Of a stretch of 23,329 nt of DNA, positions 951-23,323 are shown piece by piece. The DNA is taken from IMG/VR virus record IMGVR_UViG_3300044653_000122. One strand, written 5' to 3'. Numbering within the stretch: position 1 is the first letter of the stretch; each line of letters begins with the position of its first letter. The notes below the pieces were generated by a model that saw nothing but the letters and a program-made list of their open reading frames with translations, was not told where the DNA came from and did no database searches. This DNA is from an uncultured virus (IMG/VR IMGVR_UViG_3300044653_000122). Taxonomy: Duplodnaviria; Heunggongvirae; Uroviricota; Caudoviricetes. Made by a program: the position numbers and the translations under genes.

Positions 951-1484
951 ATGAACATCACCTTCCACTCCCTCCAGGCCCTCGACATCACCTACGACGA
1001 CGTACACAGCGCTGTCGACTGGGTCCAGAGGTCCGTCACCGTCTACGGCAAAACCCACCCGCAGCCCCGCCTCACCAAGTGGTACGGCGAGGTCCCCTAC
1101 CTCTACTCGGGCCTGACCTGGGAACCGGCTGCAATGCCCCAGGTCATTCAGACTATCCGGACTATCGTCGAGGTTCTCACCCGAACCAACTTCAACTCCG
1201 TCCTCTGCAACCTCTACCGGGACGGATCCGATTGCGTCGGCTGGCACGCCGATGACGAACCCATCTTCGGCGGAGACCCCGTCGTCGCCTCTGTCAGCTT
1301 CGGCGCCACCCGCACCTTCAAGCTCCGCCACAACACGACCAAAGAGGTCCAGAGCTTCGAGCTGACCGACAAGTCCCTGTTCGTCATGGGCAAGGGCATC
1401 CAGACCGACTGGAAGCACACGATTCCCAAGACCACCCGCCCCGTCGGCCCCCGCATCAACCTCACTTTCCGCCAGACCGTTTGA
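951..1484 (+). CDS. alkB: AlkB-family 2OG-Fe(II) dioxygenase (ALKBH2/3-like)
   Basis: NLYRDG, HxD (WHADDE), ASVSFGATR, distal His (WKHTIPK) and RINLTFR motifs. Confidence 0.93.
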   Translation: MNITFHSLQALDITYDDVHSAVDWVQRSVTVYGKTHPQPRLTKWYGEVPYLYSGLTWEPAAMPQVIQTIRTIVEVLTRTNFNSVLCNLYRDGSDCVGWHADDEPIFGGDPVVASVSFGATRTFKLRHNTTKEVQSFELTDKSLFVMGKGIQTDWKHTIPKTTRPVGPRINLTFRQTV

Positions 1485-7664: not shown

Positions 7665-8055
7665 CAAAGGATCTCGGTCCTCCACTCCACGGGACCAAAA
7701 TTTCCATGCCCCCACCCCGAAATTCGGCCGTAAAAAAAATCGGACCCCCACCCCCGGATACGGCCTCCACAAAAAAGGGACCCCCTCGAAACAAAATCCG
7801 GGGGAAATTCAGGAGCCTAGGCCGCTTCCTCCGGAAGGGAGCGGAAAGAAACCCTCAAAACCAGAAGGCAGGGGGGACCAGGAAACAACAGGAAGGGGGA
7901 CCAGGGGCAATTACCGCTGTACTGGAACTCACCGTGCGAGGTGTCCGTGTATACTGGATGGGCCAAATTTGCTCCGTCGGGCCGGCCTGAAAGTTAATCG
8001 AGCGGTTTCATGCCAACTCGATCATGACGCGTCGAGTTGAAGCACCGCATCAACT

Positions 8056-9568: not shown

Positions 9569-9594
9569 TTGATCGGGAGCCCCCTCGGCTGTAG
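9569..9594 (+). promoter_or_regulatory. TTGATC-N14-CTGTAG motif copy with no ORF downstream
   Basis: Identical over 26 bp to the copy at 10039-10064 (reverse strand). Confidence 0.7.
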
Positions 9595-10843: not shown

Positions 10844-11155
10844 TCAGTCGGCCACTGCGTCCGAGTAGGCCCGGAGCCCGTGCTTGGTCAGCTCCGTCGC
10901 GATGACCTCGGCCCGAGCGAGAGCTTTCCCATCGGCGTTGTCGTAGCCCACGTAGAGGGCGTTGCCTGACGTTCCGTATGCCTTCTTGAGGAACATGAGG
11001 CCCTGGGCCTTGCACGCCTCTGCGAAGGCCTTGATCTCCTCGCGGGTGCCGCTCACGCACACGTAGGCCCGACCACAGCCAGACGAGCGCTGGGGAGTGT
11101 ACGGGGCAGCCATGGCGGTCCTGAGAGCGTCGGCGATCTGAGTCTTGGTGGGCAT
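10844..11155 (-). CDS. hypothetical protein (103 aa)
   Basis: ORF track; motif upstream, terminator downstream. Confidence 0.8.
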   Translation of the reverse strand: MPTKTQIADALRTAMAAPYTPQRSSGCGRAYVCVSGTREEIKAFAEACKAQGLMFLKKAYGTSGNALYVGYDNADGKALARAEVIATELTKHGLRAYSDAVAD

Positions 11156-11162
11156 GGGCCCC

Positions 11163-11188
11163 CTACAGCTCGGCTAGGCGAAGATCAA
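11163..11188 (-). promoter_or_regulatory. TTGATC-N14-CTGTAG motif copy
   Basis: ATG 7 nt downstream; divergent from the 11282 copy. Confidence 0.75.
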
Positions 11189-11281
11189 AACCGGCCCTCA
11201 AGGACGTACCAAGGCGCCCCTCCGAAAATGGCACTTTGCGGGGGTGGCCCCCGCGAAACGAGCCCTCCCACCCCTTTCTTT

Positions 11282-11307
11282 TTGATCGTGAGCCCCGCCG
11301 GCTGTAG
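11282..11307 (+). promoter_or_regulatory. TTGATC-N14-CTGTAG motif copy
   Basis: ATG 7 nt downstream. Confidence 0.75.
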
Positions 11308-11314
11308 GGGAGAC

Positions 11315-11449
11315 ATGAACAACATCAAGAAGGCGCTCAAGGCGGTTCGTGCGAACCGCGCCCACAACGGCCGTAAGGCTGAGATGAAGAAGTTCCTCGT
11401 TCGTGCTGAGCGTCGTCTCAGCCGCGCTCTCAGCCGCGTTCAGAGCTGA
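11315..11449 (+). CDS. small basic protein (44 aa)
   Basis: MNNIKKALK... starting at the motif-linked ATG. Confidence 0.7.
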   Translation: MNNIKKALKAVRANRAHNGRKAEMKKFLVRAERRLSRALSRVQS

Positions 11450-11472
11450 ACCAAGAAAAGCGCTGTCCCGGT

Positions 11473-11498
11473 TTGATCGTGAGGCCTCTCACCTGTAG
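11473..11498 (+). promoter_or_regulatory. TTGATC-N14-CTGTAG motif copy
   Basis: ATG 7 nt downstream. Confidence 0.75.
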
Positions 11499-11505
11499 GA
11501 GAGAC

Positions 11506-11763
11506 ATGAACACGGCGACTGACTTCGAGCCCCTCTTCGCTCGCGTCGAGGAGATGATCAAGACCCACGGCAAGTTCGCGGTGGCCCCGGGTCATACCCT
11601 CAGATTCACGGTGAACCGCTACGGGTGGAGCGTGGACATCCTCGTGAAGCTCGTGGGAAGCCGCAAGCGGGCGACCGAAATTTGTGGGCGGGGGGATACG
11701 GCTGAGGAGGCCGTCGAGAAGCTGGGGCAGTCGCTCGACCACTGGGCGACCGTCTGTCGTTAA
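11506..11763 (+). CDS. hypothetical protein (85 aa)
   Basis: Motif-linked ATG; GRGDTAEEAVEKL resembles the HicB-like GxTxEEA motif. Confidence 0.75.
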   Translation: MNTATDFEPLFARVEEMIKTHGKFAVAPGHTLRFTVNRYGWSVDILVKLVGSRKRATEICGRGDTAEEAVEKLGQSLDHWATVCR

Positions 11764-11786
11764 AAAGGGAGCGCCCGATTTTCTTT

Positions 11787-11812
11787 TTGATCGAGAGCCT
11801 CCTCGGTTGTAG
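11787..11812 (+). promoter_or_regulatory. TTGATC-N14-TTGTAG motif copy
   Basis: ATG 7 nt downstream. Confidence 0.75.
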
Positions 11813-11819
11813 AGGGAAC

Positions 11820-12098
11820 ATGAAGACGATTGCTGCTCCCGCCACGATGACCGCCGAAATGCTCTCCAAGGTCAACGGCTCGGCCACAGTGAAGGCGTAC
11901 GTCGAGAGCTTCAACAACGTCTCGTACATCCAGCGCGCGGTCTTCCAGGGCTTCAAGACCGGCTACATCGTCCGGGCAACCTCGTTCGCGATGCAGCACA
12001 TCTGCAAAAATGCGGGCTTCCAGGCCGACCCCATCGAGGTCCACGACGAGACCTTCGGCGACGCCACCTGGCACATCTACCGTCCTGTTGCTGCTTGA
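11820..12098 (+). CDS. hypothetical protein (92 aa)
   Basis: Motif-linked ATG; stop inside the next motif. Confidence 0.75.
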   Translation: MKTIAAPATMTAEMLSKVNGSATVKAYVESFNNVSYIQRAVFQGFKTGYIVRATSFAMQHICKNAGFQADPIEVHDETFGDATWHIYRPVAA

Positions 12099-12120
12099 TC
12101 GGAAGGAGCCCCTGTTGTAG
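12095..12120 (+). promoter_or_regulatory. TTGATC-N14-TTGTAG motif copy upstream of the tRNA-like RNA
   Basis: No ATG follows; tRNA-like 5' end is 18 nt downstream. Confidence 0.7.
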
Positions 12121-12138
12121 AAGGGGCACATCCGATAC

Positions 12139-12241
12139 GGGGTCGTAAGTCTCAATGGCGGGCCAAGGTGGCCAACGTAACCCGCAAGGCAGAGCTGGTG
12201 TCCGAAAGGCCCGGTTGCCGGTTCGATTCCGGTCGACTCCA
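12139..12241 (+). ncRNA. tRNA-like RNA with Ala-type acceptor stem and T arm, non-canonical D and anticodon regions
   Basis: GGGGTCG pairs with CGACTCC (G3-U70), discriminator A; T arm GCCGG-TTCGATT-CCGGT. Confidence 0.65.
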
Positions 12242-12242
12242 C

Positions 12243-12401
12243 AAGTCTCGATCACGCCACCCGCAAACGGCGTACGGCCCCCTTGGCTGGGGGCATGGGT
12301 GAGAGCGGCCCAGCGGGGACATGGATTTGGTCAGCGCGTATAAAACTCCGGGAAGAGCGCGTACCCCGGGACCTCCCCATGCCAGGCGTGCTTCGAGACT
12401 T
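12243..12401. ncRNA. candidate structured RNA
   Basis: Closing stem AAGTCTCGA/TCGAGACTT plus CACGCC/GGCGTG enclosing several GC hairpins. Confidence 0.45.
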
Positions 12402-12406
12402 CTCTT

Positions 12407-12432
12407 TTGATCGGGCCGCACACAGGCTGTAA
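12407..12432 (+). promoter_or_regulatory. TTGATC-N14-CTGTAA motif copy
   Basis: ATG of an 11-codon ORF 7 nt downstream. Confidence 0.7.
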
Positions 12433-12495
12433 AGAAGACATGCAAAGGAGGACGGACATGAAGCTCGCCAGCTAAGACATCTGACTTTCGACGGC

Positions 12496-12540
12496 GAAGG
12501 CCCCCACGGGATGAGTACAAACCTGGGGGCCTTTCTTTTT
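12496..12540 (+). terminator. probable intrinsic terminator
   Basis: GAAGGCCCCCA...TGGGGGCCTTTC followed by TTTTT; long loop. Confidence 0.55.
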
Positions 12541-12564
12541 GATCGGCAGCCTCCTGAACTGTAG
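12539..12564 (+). promoter_or_regulatory. TTGATC-N14-CTGTAG motif copy
   Basis: ATG 7 nt downstream. Confidence 0.75.
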
Positions 12565-12571
12565 AGAAGGC

Positions 12572-12751
12572 ATGAGCACAACGATCGTTCGACTGGAAGA
12601 CGCGGATCGCTGGGTGACCTTCGAGATGAACACGCGCTTCGCCACGATGCGTAACTCGCTCGGAGAGAAGGTGCTCCTCTGTCGGGACGACGCGGAAAAT
12701 AGGATCAAAACCCTCCGCAACGCAGGATGGCAAGAGACCAAGACCTCCTAG
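12572..12751 (+). CDS. hypothetical protein (59 aa)
   Basis: Motif-linked ATG. Confidence 0.7.
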   Translation: MSTTIVRLEDADRWVTFEMNTRFATMRNSLGEKVLLCRDDAENRIKTLRNAGWQETKTS

Positions 12752-12759
12752 GAGTTACC

Positions 12760-13122
12760 ATGAGCCACGAACATAGCGTCCCGGGCACCCTCGGCCTGAG
12801 TGACTGGCACAAGGCTGATTCCAAGACTGCCCACATCTCCTACTACGGACGTACTGCCAAGGAAACGGATGTCGTCCTTGTGCGTGACTGGGAGCTTCGT
12901 GTAGGAGATCGGAAGGTCGTCGTCGGTCGCGCCATCGAGGTGATGACGTGGCGGGACTACGGGGATGTCTACTTCGAGGCTGCGTTCATGCTGCCAGGAC
13001 AGACCTCCGATGAAGGGGCCCCCATTCCCGGTGCCCAACGAAGCTCAAGGGAAACCCTGGATGACGTGAAGCGTCAGGTCGACCTCATGGTTCCTTGGCT
13101 CATCCAAAAGGTCGCCCCATGA
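12760..13122 (+). CDS. hypothetical protein (120 aa)
   Basis: AGGAG upstream of ATG 12760. Confidence 0.7.
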   Translation: MSHEHSVPGTLGLSDWHKADSKTAHISYYGRTAKETDVVLVRDWELRVGDRKVVVGRAIEVMTWRDYGDVYFEAAFMLPGQTSDEGAPIPGAQRSSRETLDDVKRQVDLMVPWLIQKVAP

Positions 13123-13624
13123 ACACCATTCACCAACACCGCATGAAGTGGTACGTCGACGGGTGCCGCGTCCTCCACGAAGACCCAGGGAGCATCGCCC
13201 CCTGCCACTGGAAACTCTCCCCGAAGCCCAGCCCGGCTGCCATCCAGAAGGACGGTTGTCGGGCGTTCGCCTTTCAAATCCTCGACCCCGACGAGGCTAT
13301 CGACTACCTGCGTCAAAGGCATTGCTGCGGCATCCTCTTCACGAGCCAACCCATCCAGTTCGGAGCGTTCCCCTCCGGTTGGGCCTGGATCAACAACGAT
13401 GCTCTGCCCCCGGTGAGGTCTCTTGGGCCGCCCGCTTCGCCTTCCCCTTCGAGCGCCGGGGCGTCACACGCGTTCTCGGGAAGGGCATTGAGCAAGACGG
13501 AGCCAAGCTCTCCTCCAGCACCGGCATCGGCGTGCCGTACGGAACTCCACGCCATGTGGTTATCCGACGCAATCACGCTGACAGAATCGCTGAAGCGTTG
13601 GGTGCCTACAAAGCATGGATCTAA
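13119..13624 (+). pseudogene. hypothetical gene apparently frameshifted at the C5 run 13407-13411
   Basis: Protein-like reading switches from the 13119 frame to the frame ending at 13624. Confidence 0.5.
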
Positions 13625-13788
13625 CACAACGAACTTGAGCGGGTCACGCTCCCATTCGTTGTGTTGCATAGCGTATACGTAGTGTATGCGCCGAATGGCT
13701 GAACCGTATGGCTGGCCATTCCTATACACTACTGAACGCGAGCTTGAGCGGGTCACGTTTCTGAACAGTATACGAGAACAGTATTCCT

Positions 13789-13974
13789 ATGCGCCTTCGA
13801 CTGCCCCCTGAGGACGAGAGAAACGCTCGAAACGAGCCCTTCGGCGAGTGGTTGGCCCAGATGACGGAGGGCGGAGGCCCCATCACTCTCACGCCTTCTG
13901 TCATCAACCGTGCGGTCGATGTGTGGCGTTCCAATGGTGACCCGAAAGCATTCCGTAGGAGCCTAGGCAACTGA
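13789..13974 (+). CDS. hypothetical protein (61 aa) between repeat copies 2 and 3
   Basis: ORF track; fills the gap between repeats. Confidence 0.55.
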   Translation: MRLRLPPEDERNARNEPFGEWLAQMTEGGGPITLTPSVINRAVDVWRSNGDPKAFRRSLGN

Positions 13975-14128
13975 ACACAACACAATCGAACTTGACCGAG
14001 TCACGTTTCTGAACAGTGGTCTAGGATTCTATTACACGCCCGAGCTTGACCGAGTCACGTTCTTGCTCAGTAGTGTAAGCCCCCGAGTTCCTCTCGTCAG
14101 ATCCATCCCCGTCAGACGTGGTGAGGGT

Positions 14129-14365
14129 ATGAGCCACCTCCCCCGTATCCCGCGACCCTCTGTCCTCCCCCGGGTCATCATGGACTTCTGCGTAGCCGAG
14201 GTGGACGCCGGCCAGGACCCCCTCACGTCATGGGACACCGATTCGACCGACCCCACCGACCTCATCCGCGTCCGCTACTCCGACCGAGAGGACGTGTGGA
14301 TTCGCGTGCTCGCCGCCAACCCCCGTGGCTACACCTGGGTCCGCTCCGCAGGTCTCTCCCGCTGA
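14129..14365 (+). CDS. hypothetical protein (78 aa)
   Basis: Internal ATG (MSHLPRIP) of ORF 14063..14365. Confidence 0.6.
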   Translation: MSHLPRIPRPSVLPRVIMDFCVAEVDAGQDPLTSWDTDSTDPTDLIRVRYSDREDVWIRVLAANPRGYTWVRSAGLSR

Positions 14366-14375
14366 CTATCCCCTC

Positions 14376-14401
14376 TTGATCGAGAGGTCCCCCGGTTGTA
14401 A
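14376..14401 (+). promoter_or_regulatory. TTGATC-N14-TTGTAA motif copy
   Basis: ATG 7 nt downstream. Confidence 0.7.
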
Positions 14402-14408
14402 AGGGGGC

Positions 14409-14609
14409 ATGGTTACCAGCACGCTCATCCAGGGGACCCCGACCGAGACCCGCCACGCCCGCCTCTACGCCTGCGCCCTCTCGGAAGTGGCCCGCCTCGA
14501 AGCCGCCCAGGCCGCCGGCTGGGATGTGGCTGCGGACCTCTCCCGTGAGCGCGCCCGGGTGAAGGCGTTCGCCCCCAAGACAAACGCGAGCTTGACCGAC
14601 TCACGTTAG
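14409..14609 (+). CDS. hypothetical protein (66 aa)
   Basis: Motif-linked ATG. Confidence 0.65.
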   Translation: MVTSTLIQGTPTETRHARLYACALSEVARLEAAQAAGWDVAADLSRERARVKAFAPKTNASLTDSR

Positions 14610-14854
14610 AAACAACTACCCCCTGACCCCCACAAGAAAGGGGCCCGGGGTTCTTCCACACGGTTGTCTTGAAGCCCTCGCTCTCTCCCGTCTGGTCTGC
14701 TGTCCCGCTATTGGCTCCACGCGAGGGGCTCCACAAGGGACGCCCGGGAACCGGAGAAGCTCGCCTCTGATCGAGAACGCGGCCTTCAACCTAGGGCTCT
14801 ACCATCAAAGCTCTATGACTCCATAGAACCCTTTGAACTTGAGCGAGTCATGTC

Positions 14855-14887: not shown

Positions 14888-15040
14888 ATGGACCTCGCTG
14901 CCCTCAAAGCCCGCGCTAAGGAACTCTCTCGCACCCTGGGCCGGATGCCTGAGTCCAAGGCCAGCGAGTCAGACAGAGCCGCCGTGCGTCATGAGCTGGC
15001 GAAGGTCGAGGCGAAGATCCGTGAGCTGGAGGCCAAGTGA
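14888..15040 (+). CDS. small helical/coiled-coil protein (50 aa)
   Basis: Motif-linked ATG; GTGA overlap with the recombinase start. Confidence 0.7.
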   Translation: MDLAALKARAKELSRTLGRMPESKASESDRAAVRHELAKVEAKIRELEAK

Positions 15041-15873
15041 CCGCCCCCGACCTCTCGGGCGCCCAGAACGATGTCCACCTCGTCCAGCTCTGGCTCGCCC
15101 AGCGGCCCGAAACGACCCGGCGGGTCTATGCCCCCGTAGCAGAGGAGTTCCTCAAGGGGCTGACCATCCGAGAGCTTGACGCAGCGCAGCTCATCGCATG
15201 GTCCGAGGCTCTCCAGGGGGAGCCGTCCACCCGATCCCGCAAGGTGAGCACCATCAAGAGCCTCCTGACCTTCGCGTGGAGGACCGGCTACACGCTCCAC
15301 AACGTCGGCCGCGTCCTCCGCTGCGTCCCCATCCCTTCCAAGGTCGCAGAGCGCATCCTGGAGGAGCCCGAGATGGCCCTGCTCTTCGCAGGGGCCCCCG
15401 AGGGACGGGACCGGACCTTCCTCCGCCTCATGTACGCTACGGGAGCCCGCGTCTCCGAGCTGTGCAAGCTCCGCTGGGTGGACTTCGCTCAGCCTGGCAG
15501 GATGACCGTCCTCGGCAAGGGGGCCAAGAAGCGCACCCTCCTGGTCCCCCAGGCCATCCTCACCGAGGTCCAGAGACTCAAGCCGGCGGGAACGCTCCCC
15601 ACGGCCTTCGTCTTCGTGTCCAAGCGCAACCCCACCAAACCCCTCGACCCCAGGGATGCCAGGGAGATCGTTTACCAAGCCAAGCGGCGGTCTAAACTCG
15701 ACCGCAAGGCTTCCCCTCATGTACTTCGCCATTCACACGCGACGCACAGTCTCGACCATGGATGCCCCATCCACATCCTTCAGCAGTCTATGGGCCATGC
15801 ATCCGTCGCTACGACCTCTGTCTACCTTCACGTTCGCCCGAACAAGGGGTCTTCCACCTACATCAAAATCTGA
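15037..15873 (+). CDS. tyrosine recombinase/integrase, XerC/D-like (278 aa)
   Basis: Complete catalytic set: TGARVSE (R), GKG (K), HVLRH (HxxR), MGH, SVY (Y). Confidence 0.95.
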   Translation: MTAPDLSGAQNDVHLVQLWLAQRPETTRRVYAPVAEEFLKGLTIRELDAAQLIAWSEALQGEPSTRSRKVSTIKSLLTFAWRTGYTLHNVGRVLRCVPIPSKVAERILEEPEMALLFAGAPEGRDRTFLRLMYATGARVSELCKLRWVDFAQPGRMTVLGKGAKKRTLLVPQAILTEVQRLKPAGTLPTAFVFVSKRNPTKPLDPRDAREIVYQAKRRSKLDRKASPHVLRHSHATHSLDHGCPIHILQQSMGHASVATTSVYLHVRPNKGSSTYIKI

Positions 15874-19106: not shown

Positions 19107-19778
19107 TCAGACGGTCTCTTCTGGCTCCCAGGCCTCCGAGAACTCCCGGTCAGCGAAAAGCGCAGCGAGTCCAGTGATTTGCTTGAGTCGCAGCACCTCG
19201 TCCGGTTGCATCCCCAGCTCCGCTTGGATTTGTTCATCGGTCCATCCAGCGACATAGAGCATTCTCACCAGGTCGCTCATCACGTCGACTGCATGTTCGC
19301 CACGGGCCCGGTTGTACTCGATGGTCGCAGCGATTCTTCCCTTGAGGTCCGCTCGATCGACGGGGAGGCGAGTGACGGGGAGGTATCCATGGAGGCGCTC
19401 ACAAAGCTCGGGGTGGGAGGCCCCCAGTCTTCGTCGATGCATCCCGTCGACAACGATATCGACCTCGTGCCCCTCTTCATCCGTTGTGGCGTGGGTGACG
19501 ACGGGCATCCCGACGCCGTTCTTGAGCATGGAGTGCTCCAAGAGCCCCATTTCCGGCTTGGCAACGAAGTTGGGGTTACGGTAGTCATCGTACCCTTGCA
19601 CCCGTTCCTTGGGGATCCAGAGGACGAGATCCACAGGTTCCTGGAACGGGGACACACTGTGCAGGGCAACTCGCACCGAGTTCAGAGCGTCGACGCGATT
19701 CTCTAGAGGCAAGCTCCCGATGATTTCGGTGAGCTGTGCGGTCAGGGCCTCCAGGGGTGTGGGCTTGGTTGAACTCAT
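19107..19778 (-). CDS. ibrB: IbrB/YbdM-like ParB-domain protein (223 aa)
   Basis: EPVDLVLW, NPN, IVVDGMHR, GYLPV, NRARGEH, ELGMQPDEVLRLKQITGL, FSEAW. Confidence 0.9.
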   Translation of the reverse strand: MSSTKPTPLEALTAQLTEIIGSLPLENRVDALNSVRVALHSVSPFQEPVDLVLWIPKERVQGYDDYRNPNFVAKPEMGLLEHSMLKNGVGMPVVTHATTDEEGHEVDIVVDGMHRRRLGASHPELCERLHGYLPVTRLPVDRADLKGRIAATIEYNRARGEHAVDVMSDLVRMLYVAGWTDEQIQAELGMQPDEVLRLKQITGLAALFADREFSEAWEPEETV

Positions 19779-20147
19779 GAACGTGTCTCCCGCCGCATAT
19801 ACCATCCTCCGGGGCCGCGTTTCCAGTTGGCGAAGCCAGCCTTTTCGTGGGTTTTCCTTGATGCGTCGTTCGTGTCTGGAATGAACGCGACGCACACCCG
19901 CTCTGGGTGAGAGGCGTAGTAGGCTTCGACGAGGCCCTTTCCGCGGTAGTCCGGCAGGACGAAGATGGGGCCGTGGCGCCAGCCCATCTTCGTTTCATGG
20001 GGCGTCACGAAGCCCACGACCTTCCCCCCTATGAAGGAGGGCTTCCCGCCGTTTGCTACACAGGAAGACCCGTCCTCGGAGGCCAGGCTCCTGCATCGCG
20101 AGACGAACGATCTCCTCCGGGATCTCCGGCGACTTTACAGACCCCAT
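19775..20147 (-). pseudogene. GNAT-family acetyltransferase, split by a frameshift at the C6 run 20024-20029
   Basis: IFVLPDYRGKGL (motif A) and NDASRKTHEKAGF (motif B); N-terminal part lies in another frame. Confidence 0.65.
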
Positions 20148-21382
20148 TTGGCCCTTCGTTTCCTCATGATTTTCCGATAGTTTTCGTACGAGGTTTCGGA
20201 ACTCCTCTGTTGGGAGAAGCCCAACCTTCGGCACATCCGGTCATTGAGAAGGATCGTCTTCGCTACGCGTCTCCACGTGGGGGCTTTTCGTTTAGCCTCG
20301 ACGTCGTAAGGCGCCTCGTCGATCATCTCCATCCCGCGTTTCTCCCGCCACCACTGGCGGTGGACCGCGATCTTGTTCTCAAAGTGTTCCCGTTCTCCAG
20401 CCGGGAGCGAGTCGAGCAAGAACCGGACATAGCTTTCCCAGGTCGGGTGGCTCTTGGGGAGCGTGACATGGCCGTTACCGAGGATATTCCCCCGCTTCCC
20501 CGCGTAGATCGCCCCGTAGTTTGCACCCACGACACGAGCGACGACTTTGTTCCAGGTCTCTGGCTCGATCACGTGCCACATGGCGAGCCCACGCCGCTGG
20601 TCGTCCCCGTACGGTTGGCAGATGCGCATGAGGTGGATGGAGAGGCCCGCCTTGTACATCGCGTCGTAGAGAGGGGGGTAAGGGAGCTTCGTCTTCCCGT
20701 AGTACGTCCAAACGTCCTCTGTCGCCCAGTCGAAGATGGGGTAGACGTTGAAGAGCCCTCCGCCCTTCCAGGCGGTCCACGCCTTTCCCTCCAGGCGACT
20801 CTTCCGATCTCGGGCGATGGCCCGCCAGCGATTGAGGCTCTCTCCGGTGCGAATCCCGACGAGGCAAGCCGTTGCTTCGTCTCCCCCATACCAGTGACCG
20901 AAGAACTCCACGAATTCCTCGAATTCCTGTGCACAGCGCTTGCCTTCCTTGTTGGTCCAGGGGGGGACGTAGAAGGGGTAGCGTGTTCCGTCGACGGTGG
21001 CTACGGGGGGAGGTTCCCGGATCCACTGTTCCCGGGCCTCGGGATCCCAACAGACCCAATAGGGTTGGGCCATGGATACGGCGTTCCGGAGGTGCAGCGG
21101 AAGGGCTACCCAGTGTGGATCGATCACATCCGCATAGAGTCGGAACATTTCTTGGACGAATGCGATCGTCGAAGCGTACTGCCCCTCAAGATCGACATAG
21201 AGGACGCCCACCTTCCGGCCCCGCCGTCTCGCCTCTTGGCAGGTGAGGTGCATCATCACGCCGGAGTCTTTCCCCGACGGTCCAGAGAGGTAGACCTTCG
21301 GGAAGGTGTCAAACGTCCAGGCGATGCGCTCCTTGGCGGCTTGGAGGACATCGATTCCGAGGGAATGCTTGGCGACCTTCAC
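20135..21382 (-). CDS. ibrA: IbrA/YbdN-like PAPS-reductase-fold protein (DUF3440), 415 aa
   Basis: SGKDS loop, YVDLEGQY, LVGIRTGESLNRW, YPIFDW, MRICQPYG, APTWRR. Confidence 0.92.
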   Translation of the reverse strand: MKVAKHSLGIDVLQAAKERIAWTFDTFPKVYLSGPSGKDSGVMMHLTCQEARRRGRKVGVLYVDLEGQYASTIAFVQEMFRLYADVIDPHWVALPLHLRNAVSMAQPYWVCWDPEAREQWIREPPPVATVDGTRYPFYVPPWTNKEGKRCAQEFEEFVEFFGHWYGGDEATACLVGIRTGESLNRWRAIARDRKSRLEGKAWTAWKGGGLFNVYPIFDWATEDVWTYYGKTKLPYPPLYDAMYKAGLSIHLMRICQPYGDDQRRGLAMWHVIEPETWNKVVARVVGANYGAIYAGKRGNILGNGHVTLPKSHPTWESYVRFLLDSLPAGEREHFENKIAVHRQWWREKRGMEMIDEAPYDVEAKRKAPTWRRVAKTILLNDRMCRRLGFSQQRSSETSYENYRKIMRKRRAKWGL

Positions 21383-22506: not shown

Positions 22507-22872
22507 TCAAGGGCATCGAGAGCTGTGCTCCTGCGAGCCGCATGTGCCAGAGGGGGATCTCTGGTTCCAGTACAAGCAGCAGCGAGTTACCATGGTGTCG
22601 GTTGAACTCGCGTTGATTTGCGTTACGGATGAGCGTACTGGGGGGGGGGGGACTTCCAACCTGGTCTCCGCCACCCAGTAGGTCATGTTTCCCCGCACGA
22701 TCTTGGTGCCTACGGGGATCCGGTCGTGTTGAACAAGCCAGACGGGCATTGGACCTCCTCCCGGGTCAATCCACCACGAGCATCGGGATTCCAGCTCTTC
22801 GTCCGAAGGTCGGAATTCTCCAGCCTCCAGCCTCCAGGTGCGAGCTGAGGGGTTCGTACCCCTCCCCCACAT
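22507..22872 (-). CDS. hypothetical protein containing a 12-nt homopolymer tract
   Basis: ORF track; G12 at 22640-22651 encodes VPPPP on the minus strand. Confidence 0.5.
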   Translation of the reverse strand: MWGRGTNPSARTWRLEAGEFRPSDEELESRCSWWIDPGGGPMPVWLVQHDRIPVGTKIVRGNMTYWVAETRLEVPPPPVRSSVTQINASSTDTMVTRCCLYWNQRSPSGTCGSQEHSSRCP

Positions 22873-22994
22873 TCATATCTCCAGGCTAAGTTGGCCACGC
22901 TCAGCCCTGAACAGCTCGCCTCTGAGGTGCGCTGGTGCGGGGATGGGCGGGGCGGAGTCGTCTTCTGACTCGATTTCCTCGAAGAAGACTATGT

Positions 22995-23323
22995 GTGGCG
23001 ACCCAGTCTCGATCGATCATGGTTTGCCACGATCCGGCAGATCGACACCTCGGTGTATCTACAGCTGTGGCGACCCAGTTCCGATCGATCATGGTTTGCC
23101 ACCCCTCGTGTGGCTCGGTGACGAACTCGCACACCCAATAGTGGCGACCCAGTTCCGATCGATCATGGTTTGCCACCTCCTGAGATGGCTCCCGTGATCG
23201 TCCCTGAGTTGACGGTGGCGACCCAGTTCCGATCGATCATGGTTTGCCACGGGTGATGACCTTGCGGCTCCTCGAAGGAGACGCTGAGTGGCGACCCAGT
23301 TCCGATCGATCATGGTTTGCCAC
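22995..23323. CRISPR. CRISPR array, 36-bp repeat GTGGCGACCCAGTTCCGATCGATCATGGTTTGCCAC, 5 repeats and 4 spacers, truncated by the window end
   Basis: Repeats at 22995, 23067, 23141, 23215, 23288; unique spacers of 36, 38, 38, 37 nt; first repeat has 2 substitutions. Confidence 0.95.

Follow-up and report, generated by a model that had tools for sequence, protein, structure and literature searches.

A tRNA-Ala-Derived Element without an Anticodon Arm in a Soil Phage Genome: Candidate Gene for a Non-Decoding Small RNA

Anatomy of the Element

The window analyzed here is the whole of a 23,329-nucleotide (nt) stretch of DNA from an uncultured virus of the Caudoviricetes (IMG/VR record IMGVR_UViG_3300044653_000122), a phage- or prophage-like sequence with 62% guanine plus cytosine (GC) from a soil metagenome. 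Its plus strand holds, at 12139-12241, an element of 103 nt (element positions 1-103 map directly onto these coordinates) in which the acceptor stem and the T arm of an alanine transfer RNA (tRNA-Ala) are combined with a short hairpin in place of the anticodon arm. From 5' to 3', the element and its immediate flanks consist of the following parts:

12095-12127, plus strand: copy of a recurrent motif, TTGATC-N15-TGTAGA-N6, promoter-like or a hairpin of a 5' untranslated region; the stop codon at 12096-12098, which ends the preceding open reading frame (ORF), falls inside it
12128-12138, plus strand: putative 11-nt 5' leader, ACATCCGATAC, placed by the register of the motif
12139-12145, plus strand: 5' strand of the acceptor stem, GGGGTCG, with G3 at 12141; pair probabilities 0.92-0.997
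12146-12159, plus strand: U8, A9, 5' strand of the D stem and start of the D loop (direct reading and alignment with tRNA-Ala genes)
12160-12189, plus strand: 30-nt D-loop insert, after position 20 in the variable part of the loop (direct reading)
12190-12196, plus strand: C, the equivalent of A21, the 3' strand of the D stem, GAGC (12192-12195), and a U equivalent to position 26 (direct reading and the same alignment)
12197-12212, plus strand: stub replacing the anticodon arm, GGUGUCC-GAAA-GGCCC (direct reading and folding)
12213-12216, plus strand: 4-nt linker GGUU, equivalent to the variable loop (direct reading)
12217-12233, plus strand: T arm GCCGG-UUCGAUU-CCGGU, abutting the 3' strand of the acceptor stem
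12234-12240, plus strand: 3' strand of the acceptor stem, CGACTCC (CGACUCC in the RNA), with U70 at 12238 (direct reading)
12242-12408, plus strand: structured non-coding trailer, with a 9-bp closing helix (12243-12251 with 12393-12401) followed by CUCUUUU

The acceptor stem counts seven base pairs, with G3 facing U70 (T70 in the DNA). The discriminator A is base 12241 and is followed by CAA, so that the terminal CCA is not encoded. All seven acceptor pairs are retained, as are all five pairs of the T stem, the T-loop consensus and the equivalents of U8, A14, G18-G19 and A21. The alanine identity set is also present in the sequence: G3-U70, A73 and the G1-G4/C69-C72 pairs. In PMC7609411, G3:U70 is described as the major identity element of alanyl-tRNA synthetase (AlaRS). 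On the acceptor stem, G3-U70, the discriminator A, the T arm and the missing CCA, direct reading bears out an earlier annotation of this DNA (the original prediction), which had also named G3-U70 and A73 as AlaRS identity elements.

The D region is less regular. The 5' strand of the D stem, G-(U)-CUC (12149-12153), carries one extra A and one bulged U compared with a tRNA, and the loop starts with AAUGGC, in which 12157-12158 are the equivalents of G18-G19. In the DNA, the two halves read GTCTC-AATGG-C (12149-12159) and CA-GAGC (12190-12195). The letters of the D-arm-like segment with an insert of about 30 nt are as originally described, though the D stem drawn there has a pair probability of only 0.001. 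An ordinary D arm, with 3-4 bp and a loop of 7-11 nt, is absent: a bulge is needed and the loop is enlarged by the 30-nt insert. Within the insert, GGCC-AAGGU-GGCC can pair (12161-12164 with 12170-12173; pair probability about 0.7); alternatively, GCGGG pairs with CCCGC (12158-12162 with 12181-12185), borrowing two flanking bases, at a pair probability of about 0.15.

The stub has five base pairs, two bulged U and a GNRA tetraloop (12204-12207). Its core, CC-GAAA-GG (12202-12209), stands exactly where it had been announced, at the site of the anticodon arm. A 5-bp stem with a 7-nt loop carrying U33 and an anticodon is missing, both on direct reading and for the default and intron modes of ARAGORN, and only 21 nt separate the D stem from the T stem. 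In the linker, U 12216 corresponds to position 48 and stands in register with A15 (12155), probably as a Levitt pair of the kind seen in tRNA. With the acceptor stem and the T arm alone fixed, the fold energy is -39.3 kcal/mol, against -35.3 kcal/mol for the originally predicted model with D stem and GAAA hairpin. An alternative inner stem of GGGCC (12160-12164) with GGCCC (12208-12212) reaches -39.0 kcal/mol, with a pair probability of 0.146.

The chance of such an arrangement was estimated by simulating the window with a first-order Markov model. A relaxed geometry, which asks only for a 7-bp acceptor next to a 5-bp T stem with the loop TTCRANN, was present in 68 of 1000 simulations; the geometry alone is hence weak evidence. 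A strict T arm (G53, TTCGAWT, C61) next to an acceptor stem was found in just 4 of 6000 simulated windows, and in none of the 6000 when G3-T70 and A73 were added. These counts indicate derivation from a tRNA-type gene. The element is a real tRNA-derived sequence without a usable anticodon arm, and not a chance match.

Comparison with tRNA and tmRNA Models

ARAGORN reports no tRNA and no transfer-messenger RNA (tmRNA) in the window at default settings, and no tRNA with introns allowed or at thresholds of 95% (-ps) or 80% (-ps80). When the threshold is lowered to 70% and introns are allowed, 12139-12242 is called as a tRNA-Ser(cga) whose positions 31 and 32 are separated by a 36-nt insert, but the same setting calls two further 'tRNAs' on the opposite strand within the same 600 nt. 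The sole tmRNA call at 70% is an implausible 'permuted' model, also on the opposite strand. No Rfam family matches the element at the gathering thresholds. In E-value mode, tRNA-Sec leads the tRNA clan with 18.1 bits (cut-off 47, E 0.92), its match being restricted to the acceptor stem and the T arm; nothing among the tmRNA families exceeds this score, tmRNA_permuted reaching 13.1 bits (E 2.4). A model (R1) built from 32 tRNA-Ala genes of the loci fetched during the searches described below matches only the T-arm end, 12197-12241, with 20.9 bits and a rough E of 8.5e-4.

This sets the element apart from the controls. On Rfam tRNA, 38-58 bits are reached by intron-like tRNA-Ala look-alikes that the pattern search found. 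On Rfam tmRNA, two tmRNA heads found in the same way (L018 and L099) score 69.9 and 59.0 bits, and the tRNA-like-domain-only tmRNA of phage DS6A (JN698994.1, 28478-28560) scores 43.2 bits (E 6.5e-14). The check for an ordinary or intron-containing tRNA, run with ARAGORN and Rfam, did not score the element as such, with at most 18.1 bits on Rfam. It is therefore no tRNA of either kind, and no recognizable tmRNA.

With tmRNA, the element shares the acceptor with G3-U70, A73 and the T arm. The label 'minimal tmRNA-like', which had been proposed for it, does not fit: the D-loop motif ..GGU..UCGAC and the GAC linker of tmRNA are absent, and no tmRNA score rises above 18.1 bits. Where AATGGT..TCGAC and G.AC are invariant in an alignment (A3) of DS6A, L018 and L099, the element has UAAGUCUCAAUGGC and GGUU. 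The alternative stem GGGCC/GGCCC is a candidate for P2, the inner helix with which tmRNA closes the domain where a tRNA has its anticodon stem. A tmRNA that is permuted or has its tag further downstream was also considered and rejected: there is no second 5' strand of the acceptor, and ARAGORN at default finds none. The other proposed function, a decoy for anticodon nucleases, is unlikely because the element has no anticodon loop to cut.

The proteins were examined by family scans, with PHROGs, PADLOC and NCBIfam for 34-36 ORFs of the window and with Pfam for 26. A tRNA mimic of the Y-RNA/YrlA type was rejected, since the element lacks a long terminal stem and the scanned ORFs do not include a Ro-like gene.

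Descent from tRNA-Ala

The 32 tRNA-Ala genes were also aligned with the element (alignment A1). It keeps 22 of their 25 invariant positions, 13 of these 25 columns being fixed by the collecting pattern and therefore invariant by construction. The three lost positions are T33, G35 and C36, i.e., U33 and part of the anticodon, all of them within the anticodon loop; by our arithmetic, the chance that three random losses all fall on the four invariant loop positions is about 0.002. Among the nearly invariant positions, 10 of 12 are kept. C48 has become U, matched by a change of G15 to A, and we take A15/U48 to be an alternative Levitt pair, as known from tRNA structure. The D stem GCUC/GAGC and the loop AAUGG point to a tRNA origin and away from tmRNA. 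The kept tRNA-Ala positions, together with the absent tmRNA motifs, argue that the element descends from a tRNA-Ala-like gene, not from a tmRNA.

Upstream Motif, Leader and Trailer

The motif upstream of the element belongs to a family of cassette motifs, TTGATC-N15-TGTAGR-N6. There are 17 copies with an exact TTGATC on both strands of the window, so placed that most small genes are preceded by one, and in 14 of the 17 an ATG stands exactly 6 nt past TGTAGR. They include copies at 9569, 11282, 11473, 11787, 12095, 12407, 12539 and 14376 on the plus strand and at 11188, 10750, 10064, 9786 and 6331 on the minus strand, and the motif falls into the repeat families D1, D3, D6 and D7 of the window. 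The copy at 12095-12127 has ACA where other copies carry ATG. Base 12128 corresponds to the A of that ATG, and the element begins 11 nt on, which agrees with the 11-nt leader of the original prediction. Terminator-like hairpins or T-runs abut some motif copies (e.g., 12497-12541 before the copy at 12539), which favors reading the motif as a promoter. Two readings are considered: a phage promoter that yields leaderless mRNAs, and an RNA hairpin that hides the ribosome-binding site. No copy of the motif was found in the viral contig collection.

The element is directly followed by the trailer, whose fold of about 160 nt (12242-12401) has a minimum free energy (MFE) of -72.3 kcal/mol (z = -1.76; 12 of 200 shuffles equal or better). 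The trailer belongs to no Rfam family, and no similar DNA was found in phages or plasmids. Over the element itself, no ORF shows a gene-like codon bias; the longest plus-strand ORF, 12155-12343, has a GC content at third codon positions of about 0.61, compared with 0.73-0.88 in its neighbors. Beyond the trailer lie a motif copy, an 11-codon ORF (12440-12475, MQRRTDMKLAS) and then the strong intrinsic terminator at 12497-12541. This ORF contains an internal AAGGAGG-N7-ATG giving MKLAS and resembles a leader peptide or attenuator.

Relatives and Homologue Searches

The sequencing runs listed as containing this DNA include no RNA sample. Contigs of four other runs were compared over 11000-13500; those of runs X4 and X7 do not cover most of the element. 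The X2 contig (3,509 nt) covers 12079-13500 with four substitutions and three gaps, none of them inside the element, and has a 2-nt deletion at 12127. X2 and X5 both join 11448 to 12079: a segment of 630 nt (11449-12078), with two small motif-led ORFs, is present in one form and missing in the other. Motif copies follow shortly downstream of the break, a hint that cassettes are exchanged by recombination at the motif. The element is thus unchanged in a related contig despite a 630-nt indel and a 2-nt deletion upstream. The known relatives, near-identical soil contigs, are too close to show selection.

More distant relatives were sought in several collections. In viral contigs, neither the exact 29-mer nor the pattern of stub plus T arm occurs; the 5' pattern gave one match, the ribosome-binding site of a baseplate-like gene, which was dismissed as chance. 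In phages, megablast and blastn returned no match, or matches of the T arm only to phage tRNAs, and plasmids gave none. Three neighboring proteins found only weak, short matches in the viral contigs, and two of the loci retrieved with them (L001 and L002) are without a tRNA-like element. Among 5.8 billion proteins, the 120-aa neighbor protein finds only itself and the 195-aa ORF nothing. In a genome collection covering 185,579 species, only two stretches contain the exact 3' 22-mer. The first is a coding coincidence. The second, a tRNA 3' end at a contig edge in a low-GC metagenome-assembled genome (MAG) of the Chitinophagales, is identical to the element over the 3' 24 nt.

A pattern for the general architecture matched 15 viral loci and at least 118 metagenome stretches; the element itself is not among the matches listed. 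In a BLAST comparison with 141 fetched loci, no locus is similar to the element outside the T arm and the 3' strand of the acceptor. Two kinds of genes in this set deserve description. The first comprises two 78-nt tmRNA heads without the tag-coding part, L018 601-678 on the minus strand (the same as L075) and L099 40-117 on the plus strand. Both combine a G3-U70 acceptor and AAUGGU..UCGAC with a short inner helix, the GAC linker and a T arm, and both encode the CCA; the inner helix of L099 is capped by GCAA, and L018 adjoins a cluster of four tRNAs on a 94-kb viral contig. These heads are the same kind of RNA as that of DS6A.

The second kind is tRNA-Ala-like (L008, the same as L052, and L040, L041, L095, L112, L133, L135 and L139), with canonical acceptor, D and T arms and no encoded CCA. 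Here, an irregular rod of 30-60 nt replaces the anticodon stem-loop, and ARAGORN misses them; L008, L133 and L139 share identical D arms and show compensatory changes in the acceptor stem. They were examined as anticodon-less kin of the element and set aside on their 38-58 bits on Rfam tRNA. We read them as tRNA genes with an insert in the anticodon arm, probably an intron, perhaps archaeal or of archaeal viruses, and not as relatives of the element.

Comparison with Known Systems

Mycobacterium phage DS6A carries a tmRNA reduced to its tRNA-like domain, and a similar molecule is said to inhibit tmRNA, according to the passages on it in PMC4131195 and PMC11915505. Both this RNA and the element are phage-encoded, about 80-100 nt long, and have a 7-bp acceptor with G3-U70, a discriminator A, a canonical T arm, no anticodon, no tag-coding part and no encoded CCA. 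They also agree in the order of acceptor, 14-nt single strand, inner helix, 4-nt linker and T arm, provided that the GGGCC/GGCCC fold is real. However, DS6A keeps the tmRNA signature AAUGGUGGUCGAC, whereas the element lacks UCGAC, has GGUU as its linker and keeps the D stem GCUC/GAGC of a tRNA, from which it appears to descend. MAFFT placed the 5' end of the DS6A domain against the insert (GGGCC-AAGGUGGCCAAC), about 10 of 13 bases agreeing, which was judged to be chance (about 0.1 by estimate).

With canonical bacterial tRNA-Ala, the element has in common the GGGG.../...CUCC acceptor, G3-U70, A73, GCUC/GAGC, G18-G19, A21 and the T arm. It differs in lacking the anticodon arm, in the 30-nt insert of its D loop, in two extra bases on the 5' side of the D arm and in a variable loop of 4 nt.

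Non-decoding tRNA-like elements also serve RNA processing, such as the t-elements of plant mitochondria, MALAT1-mascRNA and the tRNA-like/pre-miRNA units of the herpesvirus MHV68. As in these, the top half of a tRNA stands beside another RNA, and recognition by RNase P and tRNase Z is expected. Those systems are eukaryotic or organellar, however, whereas the element keeps the full alanine identity set and the elbow.

Irregular allo-tRNA-like sequences from soil metagenomes, as presented in PMC7609411, share the soil origin, extra stems (five-stem junctions), in some cases G3:U70, and being unusable for translation. Unlike the element, with its standard 7/5 arrangement and no long variable arm, allo-tRNAs have 8/4 or 9/3 acceptor/T stems and long variable arms.

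Non-decoding alanine-type tRNA look-alikes are already known in phages, DS6A being one example. The anatomy of the element is different, with its tRNA descent, D-loop insert and GNRA-capped stub, and it is recognized neither as a tRNA nor as a tmRNA.

Possible Function and Alternative Explanations

We tentatively read the locus as the gene of a matured, non-decoding small RNA of a temperate soil phage, derived from tRNA-Ala, probably chargeable with alanine and acting as a competitor or decoy. The RNA would be made from its own cassette. Host RNase P would remove the 11-nt leader at 12138/12139, a cut of the tRNase Z type after A73 (12241) would remove the trailer, and the host CCA-adding enzyme would supply the CCA. 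The intact minihelix of acceptor and T arm, with G3-U70 and A73, could then be a substrate for the host AlaRS; this enzyme charges minihelices. With a GNRA-capped stub as all that is left of the anticodon arm, and with a hairpin added to the outer D loop, decoding would be impossible. In trans, the RNA may compete for, or decoy, a host factor with affinity for the top half or the elbow of tRNAs, candidate targets being the tmRNA-SmpB pathway (as proposed for DS6A) or a tRNA-directed defence or toxin. This downstream role is the least certain step of the mechanism. Three observations fit a functional remodeling better than neutral decay: the parts touched by processing and charging enzymes are kept and only the decoding part is lost, the change consists of indels and a GNRA cap instead of scattered substitutions, and the element is preceded by a cassette motif of its own.

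Several observations weigh against such an RNA. The fold energy is ordinary (MFE -39.4 kcal/mol, z = -0.62, with 45 of 200 shuffles equal or better), and three differing inner folds lie within 0.4 kcal/mol. The D stem requires its bulge, the stub has two, and CCA is not encoded. No diverged homologue is among the matches listed from the viral, metagenome, genome, phage and plasmid collections, so that neither covariation nor purifying selection supports the structure. With 4 substitutions in 1,422 nt in X2, none in the 103 nt of the element is uninformative. The scanned ORFs include no tRNA- or tmRNA-related protein. Between the C-rich half of the motif's spacer and the purines ahead of the ATG there is covariation (CCCCC/GGGGG, CUCUC/GAGAG, CCUC/GAGG), a hint that the putative promoter may be an RNA hairpin. 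On tmRNA, finally, the space filled here by the D stem and the stub is that of SmpB. The version in which the RNA titrates SmpB is doubtful for this reason. The scanned ORFs include no smpB-like gene.

A young pseudogene of tRNA-Ala, i.e., a captured tRNA disabled by a few indels, with little further decay so far and no function, is, in our view, only somewhat unlikely. ARAGORN and Rfam do not detect the element, no conserved homologues appear in the searched collections, the fold is no better than that of shuffles, the D stem and the stub are irregular, and CCA is missing. Since the compared runs hold a young, near-clonal lineage, intact stems need not mean selection. Neutral decay would nevertheless have to bring about four or more separate indel or replacement events without a single substitution at 21 conserved positions outside the anticodon loop, as well as a joint change of G15/C48 to A15/U48. 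It would also have to leave a stub capped by a stable GNRA loop and the cassette motif in register upstream. Moreover, phage genomes are compact, and this non-coding stretch is kept across variants that differ by an adjacent 630-nt indel.

The element could also be a tRNA-like processing signal, at which cuts by RNase P and tRNase Z part messages or free the 160-nt RNA 12242-12401, the alanine identity being an inherited by-product. The position between same-strand genes and directly before a closed structured domain (9-bp helix, z = -1.76) that ends in a U-rich tract would suit this role, and processing enzymes need only the top half and the elbow, exactly what is kept. However, if the motif is a promoter, the element already stands at the 5' end of its own short transcript and there is no upstream message to be parted; the trailer, in turn, has no known family or homologues and a modest structure score, and its cleavage is putative. 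We consider this explanation unlikely. A bolder form of the decoy reading holds that the element belongs to a new, independently evolved class of non-decoding aminoacyl-RNA, whose acceptor, T arm and elbow form a scaffold chargeable by AlaRS, with the GNRA loop closing off the anticodon arm and the added hairpin displayed on the outer D loop, and that it is freed together with a 160-nt structured partner by the tRNA-processing enzymes of the host, acting as an anti-host decoy against ribosome rescue or tRNA-directed defence and convergent with the tmRNA domain; taken as a whole, this is distinctly unlikely.

An attachment site (attP) or a recombination scar holding part of a host tRNA gene seems very improbable. 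A tyrosine integrase is encoded at 15037-15873, the 3' 24 nt are identical to the tRNA 3' end of the Chitinophagales MAG, and the 542-nt X7 contig shares only 12213-12244, with two differences, before it diverges. But an attP needs the 3' part of a tRNA only, whereas the element also has the 5' acceptor strand, the D stem and the elbow bases. Among the 185,579 species, the exact 22-mer is limited to the two stretches named above, of which the first is the coding coincidence; the integrase lies 2.8 kb off, with six operator- or arm-type repeats (13630-14852) far nearer to it; and the window holds no second copy of the T arm.

Hardly credible is a decoding tRNA with an intron, whether Ser-CGA interrupted by 36 nt or a tRNA with the intron in its D loop. 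Although the permissive ARAGORN call offers a perfect GGGCC/GGCCC stem with the loop UCCGAAA in a fold only 0.3-0.4 kcal/mol above the best, it is confined to a setting that also yields calls on the opposite strand and fails at default, -ps and -ps80 with or without introns, it places the insert between positions 31 and 32 and a C instead of U33, the element stays at or below 18.1 bits where intron-bearing tRNA-Ala-like genes reach 38-58, and removal of the D-loop insert still leaves no anticodon arm.

That phages carry tRNAs, and that one phage carries a tmRNA head without its message, is known already. If tRNA-Ala has indeed been remodeled independently into a non-decoding, chargeable RNA, phages would have arrived at anticodon-less aminoacyl-RNA decoys repeatedly and from more than one starting point, and the 103-nt element would be an easily tested object for the question of the target, be it AlaRS, EF-Tu, SmpB or tRNA-directed toxins. 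If it is a fresh pseudogene only, it would be one of the usual by-products of capturing tRNA genes. For the annotation of soil viromes, it is relevant that the element escapes the standard finders of tRNA and tmRNA completely.

Other Features of the Window

The window contains many orphan ORFs. The genes assigned by protein family scans are:

951-1484, plus strand: AlkB-like 2OG-Fe(II) oxygenase, 177 aa (PHROG 'alkylated DNA repair', 1.5e-28)
15037-15873: tyrosine integrase
19107-19895, minus strand: ParB-like gene of an IbrA/IbrB-like pair
20135-21382, minus strand: PAPS-reductase-like gene of the same pair

The AlkB-like protein also matches the C-terminal oxygenase part of the PADLOC model CARF_2OG (2e-33). 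The integrase gives a host guess of 'commonest Pseudomonadota' only, which is not informative. Just upstream of its gene, at 13630-14852, lie six 19-nt sites, CGAACTTGAGCGGGTCACG and variants, some as inverted pairs. They are candidate operator or arm-type integrase sites, perhaps marking the real attP region.

Five 36-nt repeats, GTGGCGACCCAGTTCCGATCGATCATGGTTTGCCAC, which recur every 72-74 nt and are separated by unique sequences of about 37 nt, occupy 22995-23323 and run off the window end. They could be a CRISPR-like mini-array or GATC-rich replication iterons; no CRISPR repeat family was matched at the Rfam gathering thresholds. On the minus strand, 22840-22918 forms a weak acceptor- and T-arm-like fold, with an 8-bp stem (GCGAGCUG/CAGCUCGC) beside AGGGG-UACGAA-CCCCU, which scores 13.4 bits on the tRNA-Ala model (rough E 0.09) and may be due to chance. 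Tandem 36-nt units, CCCCCACCCC...AAAAAAAA, are present at 7709-7780.

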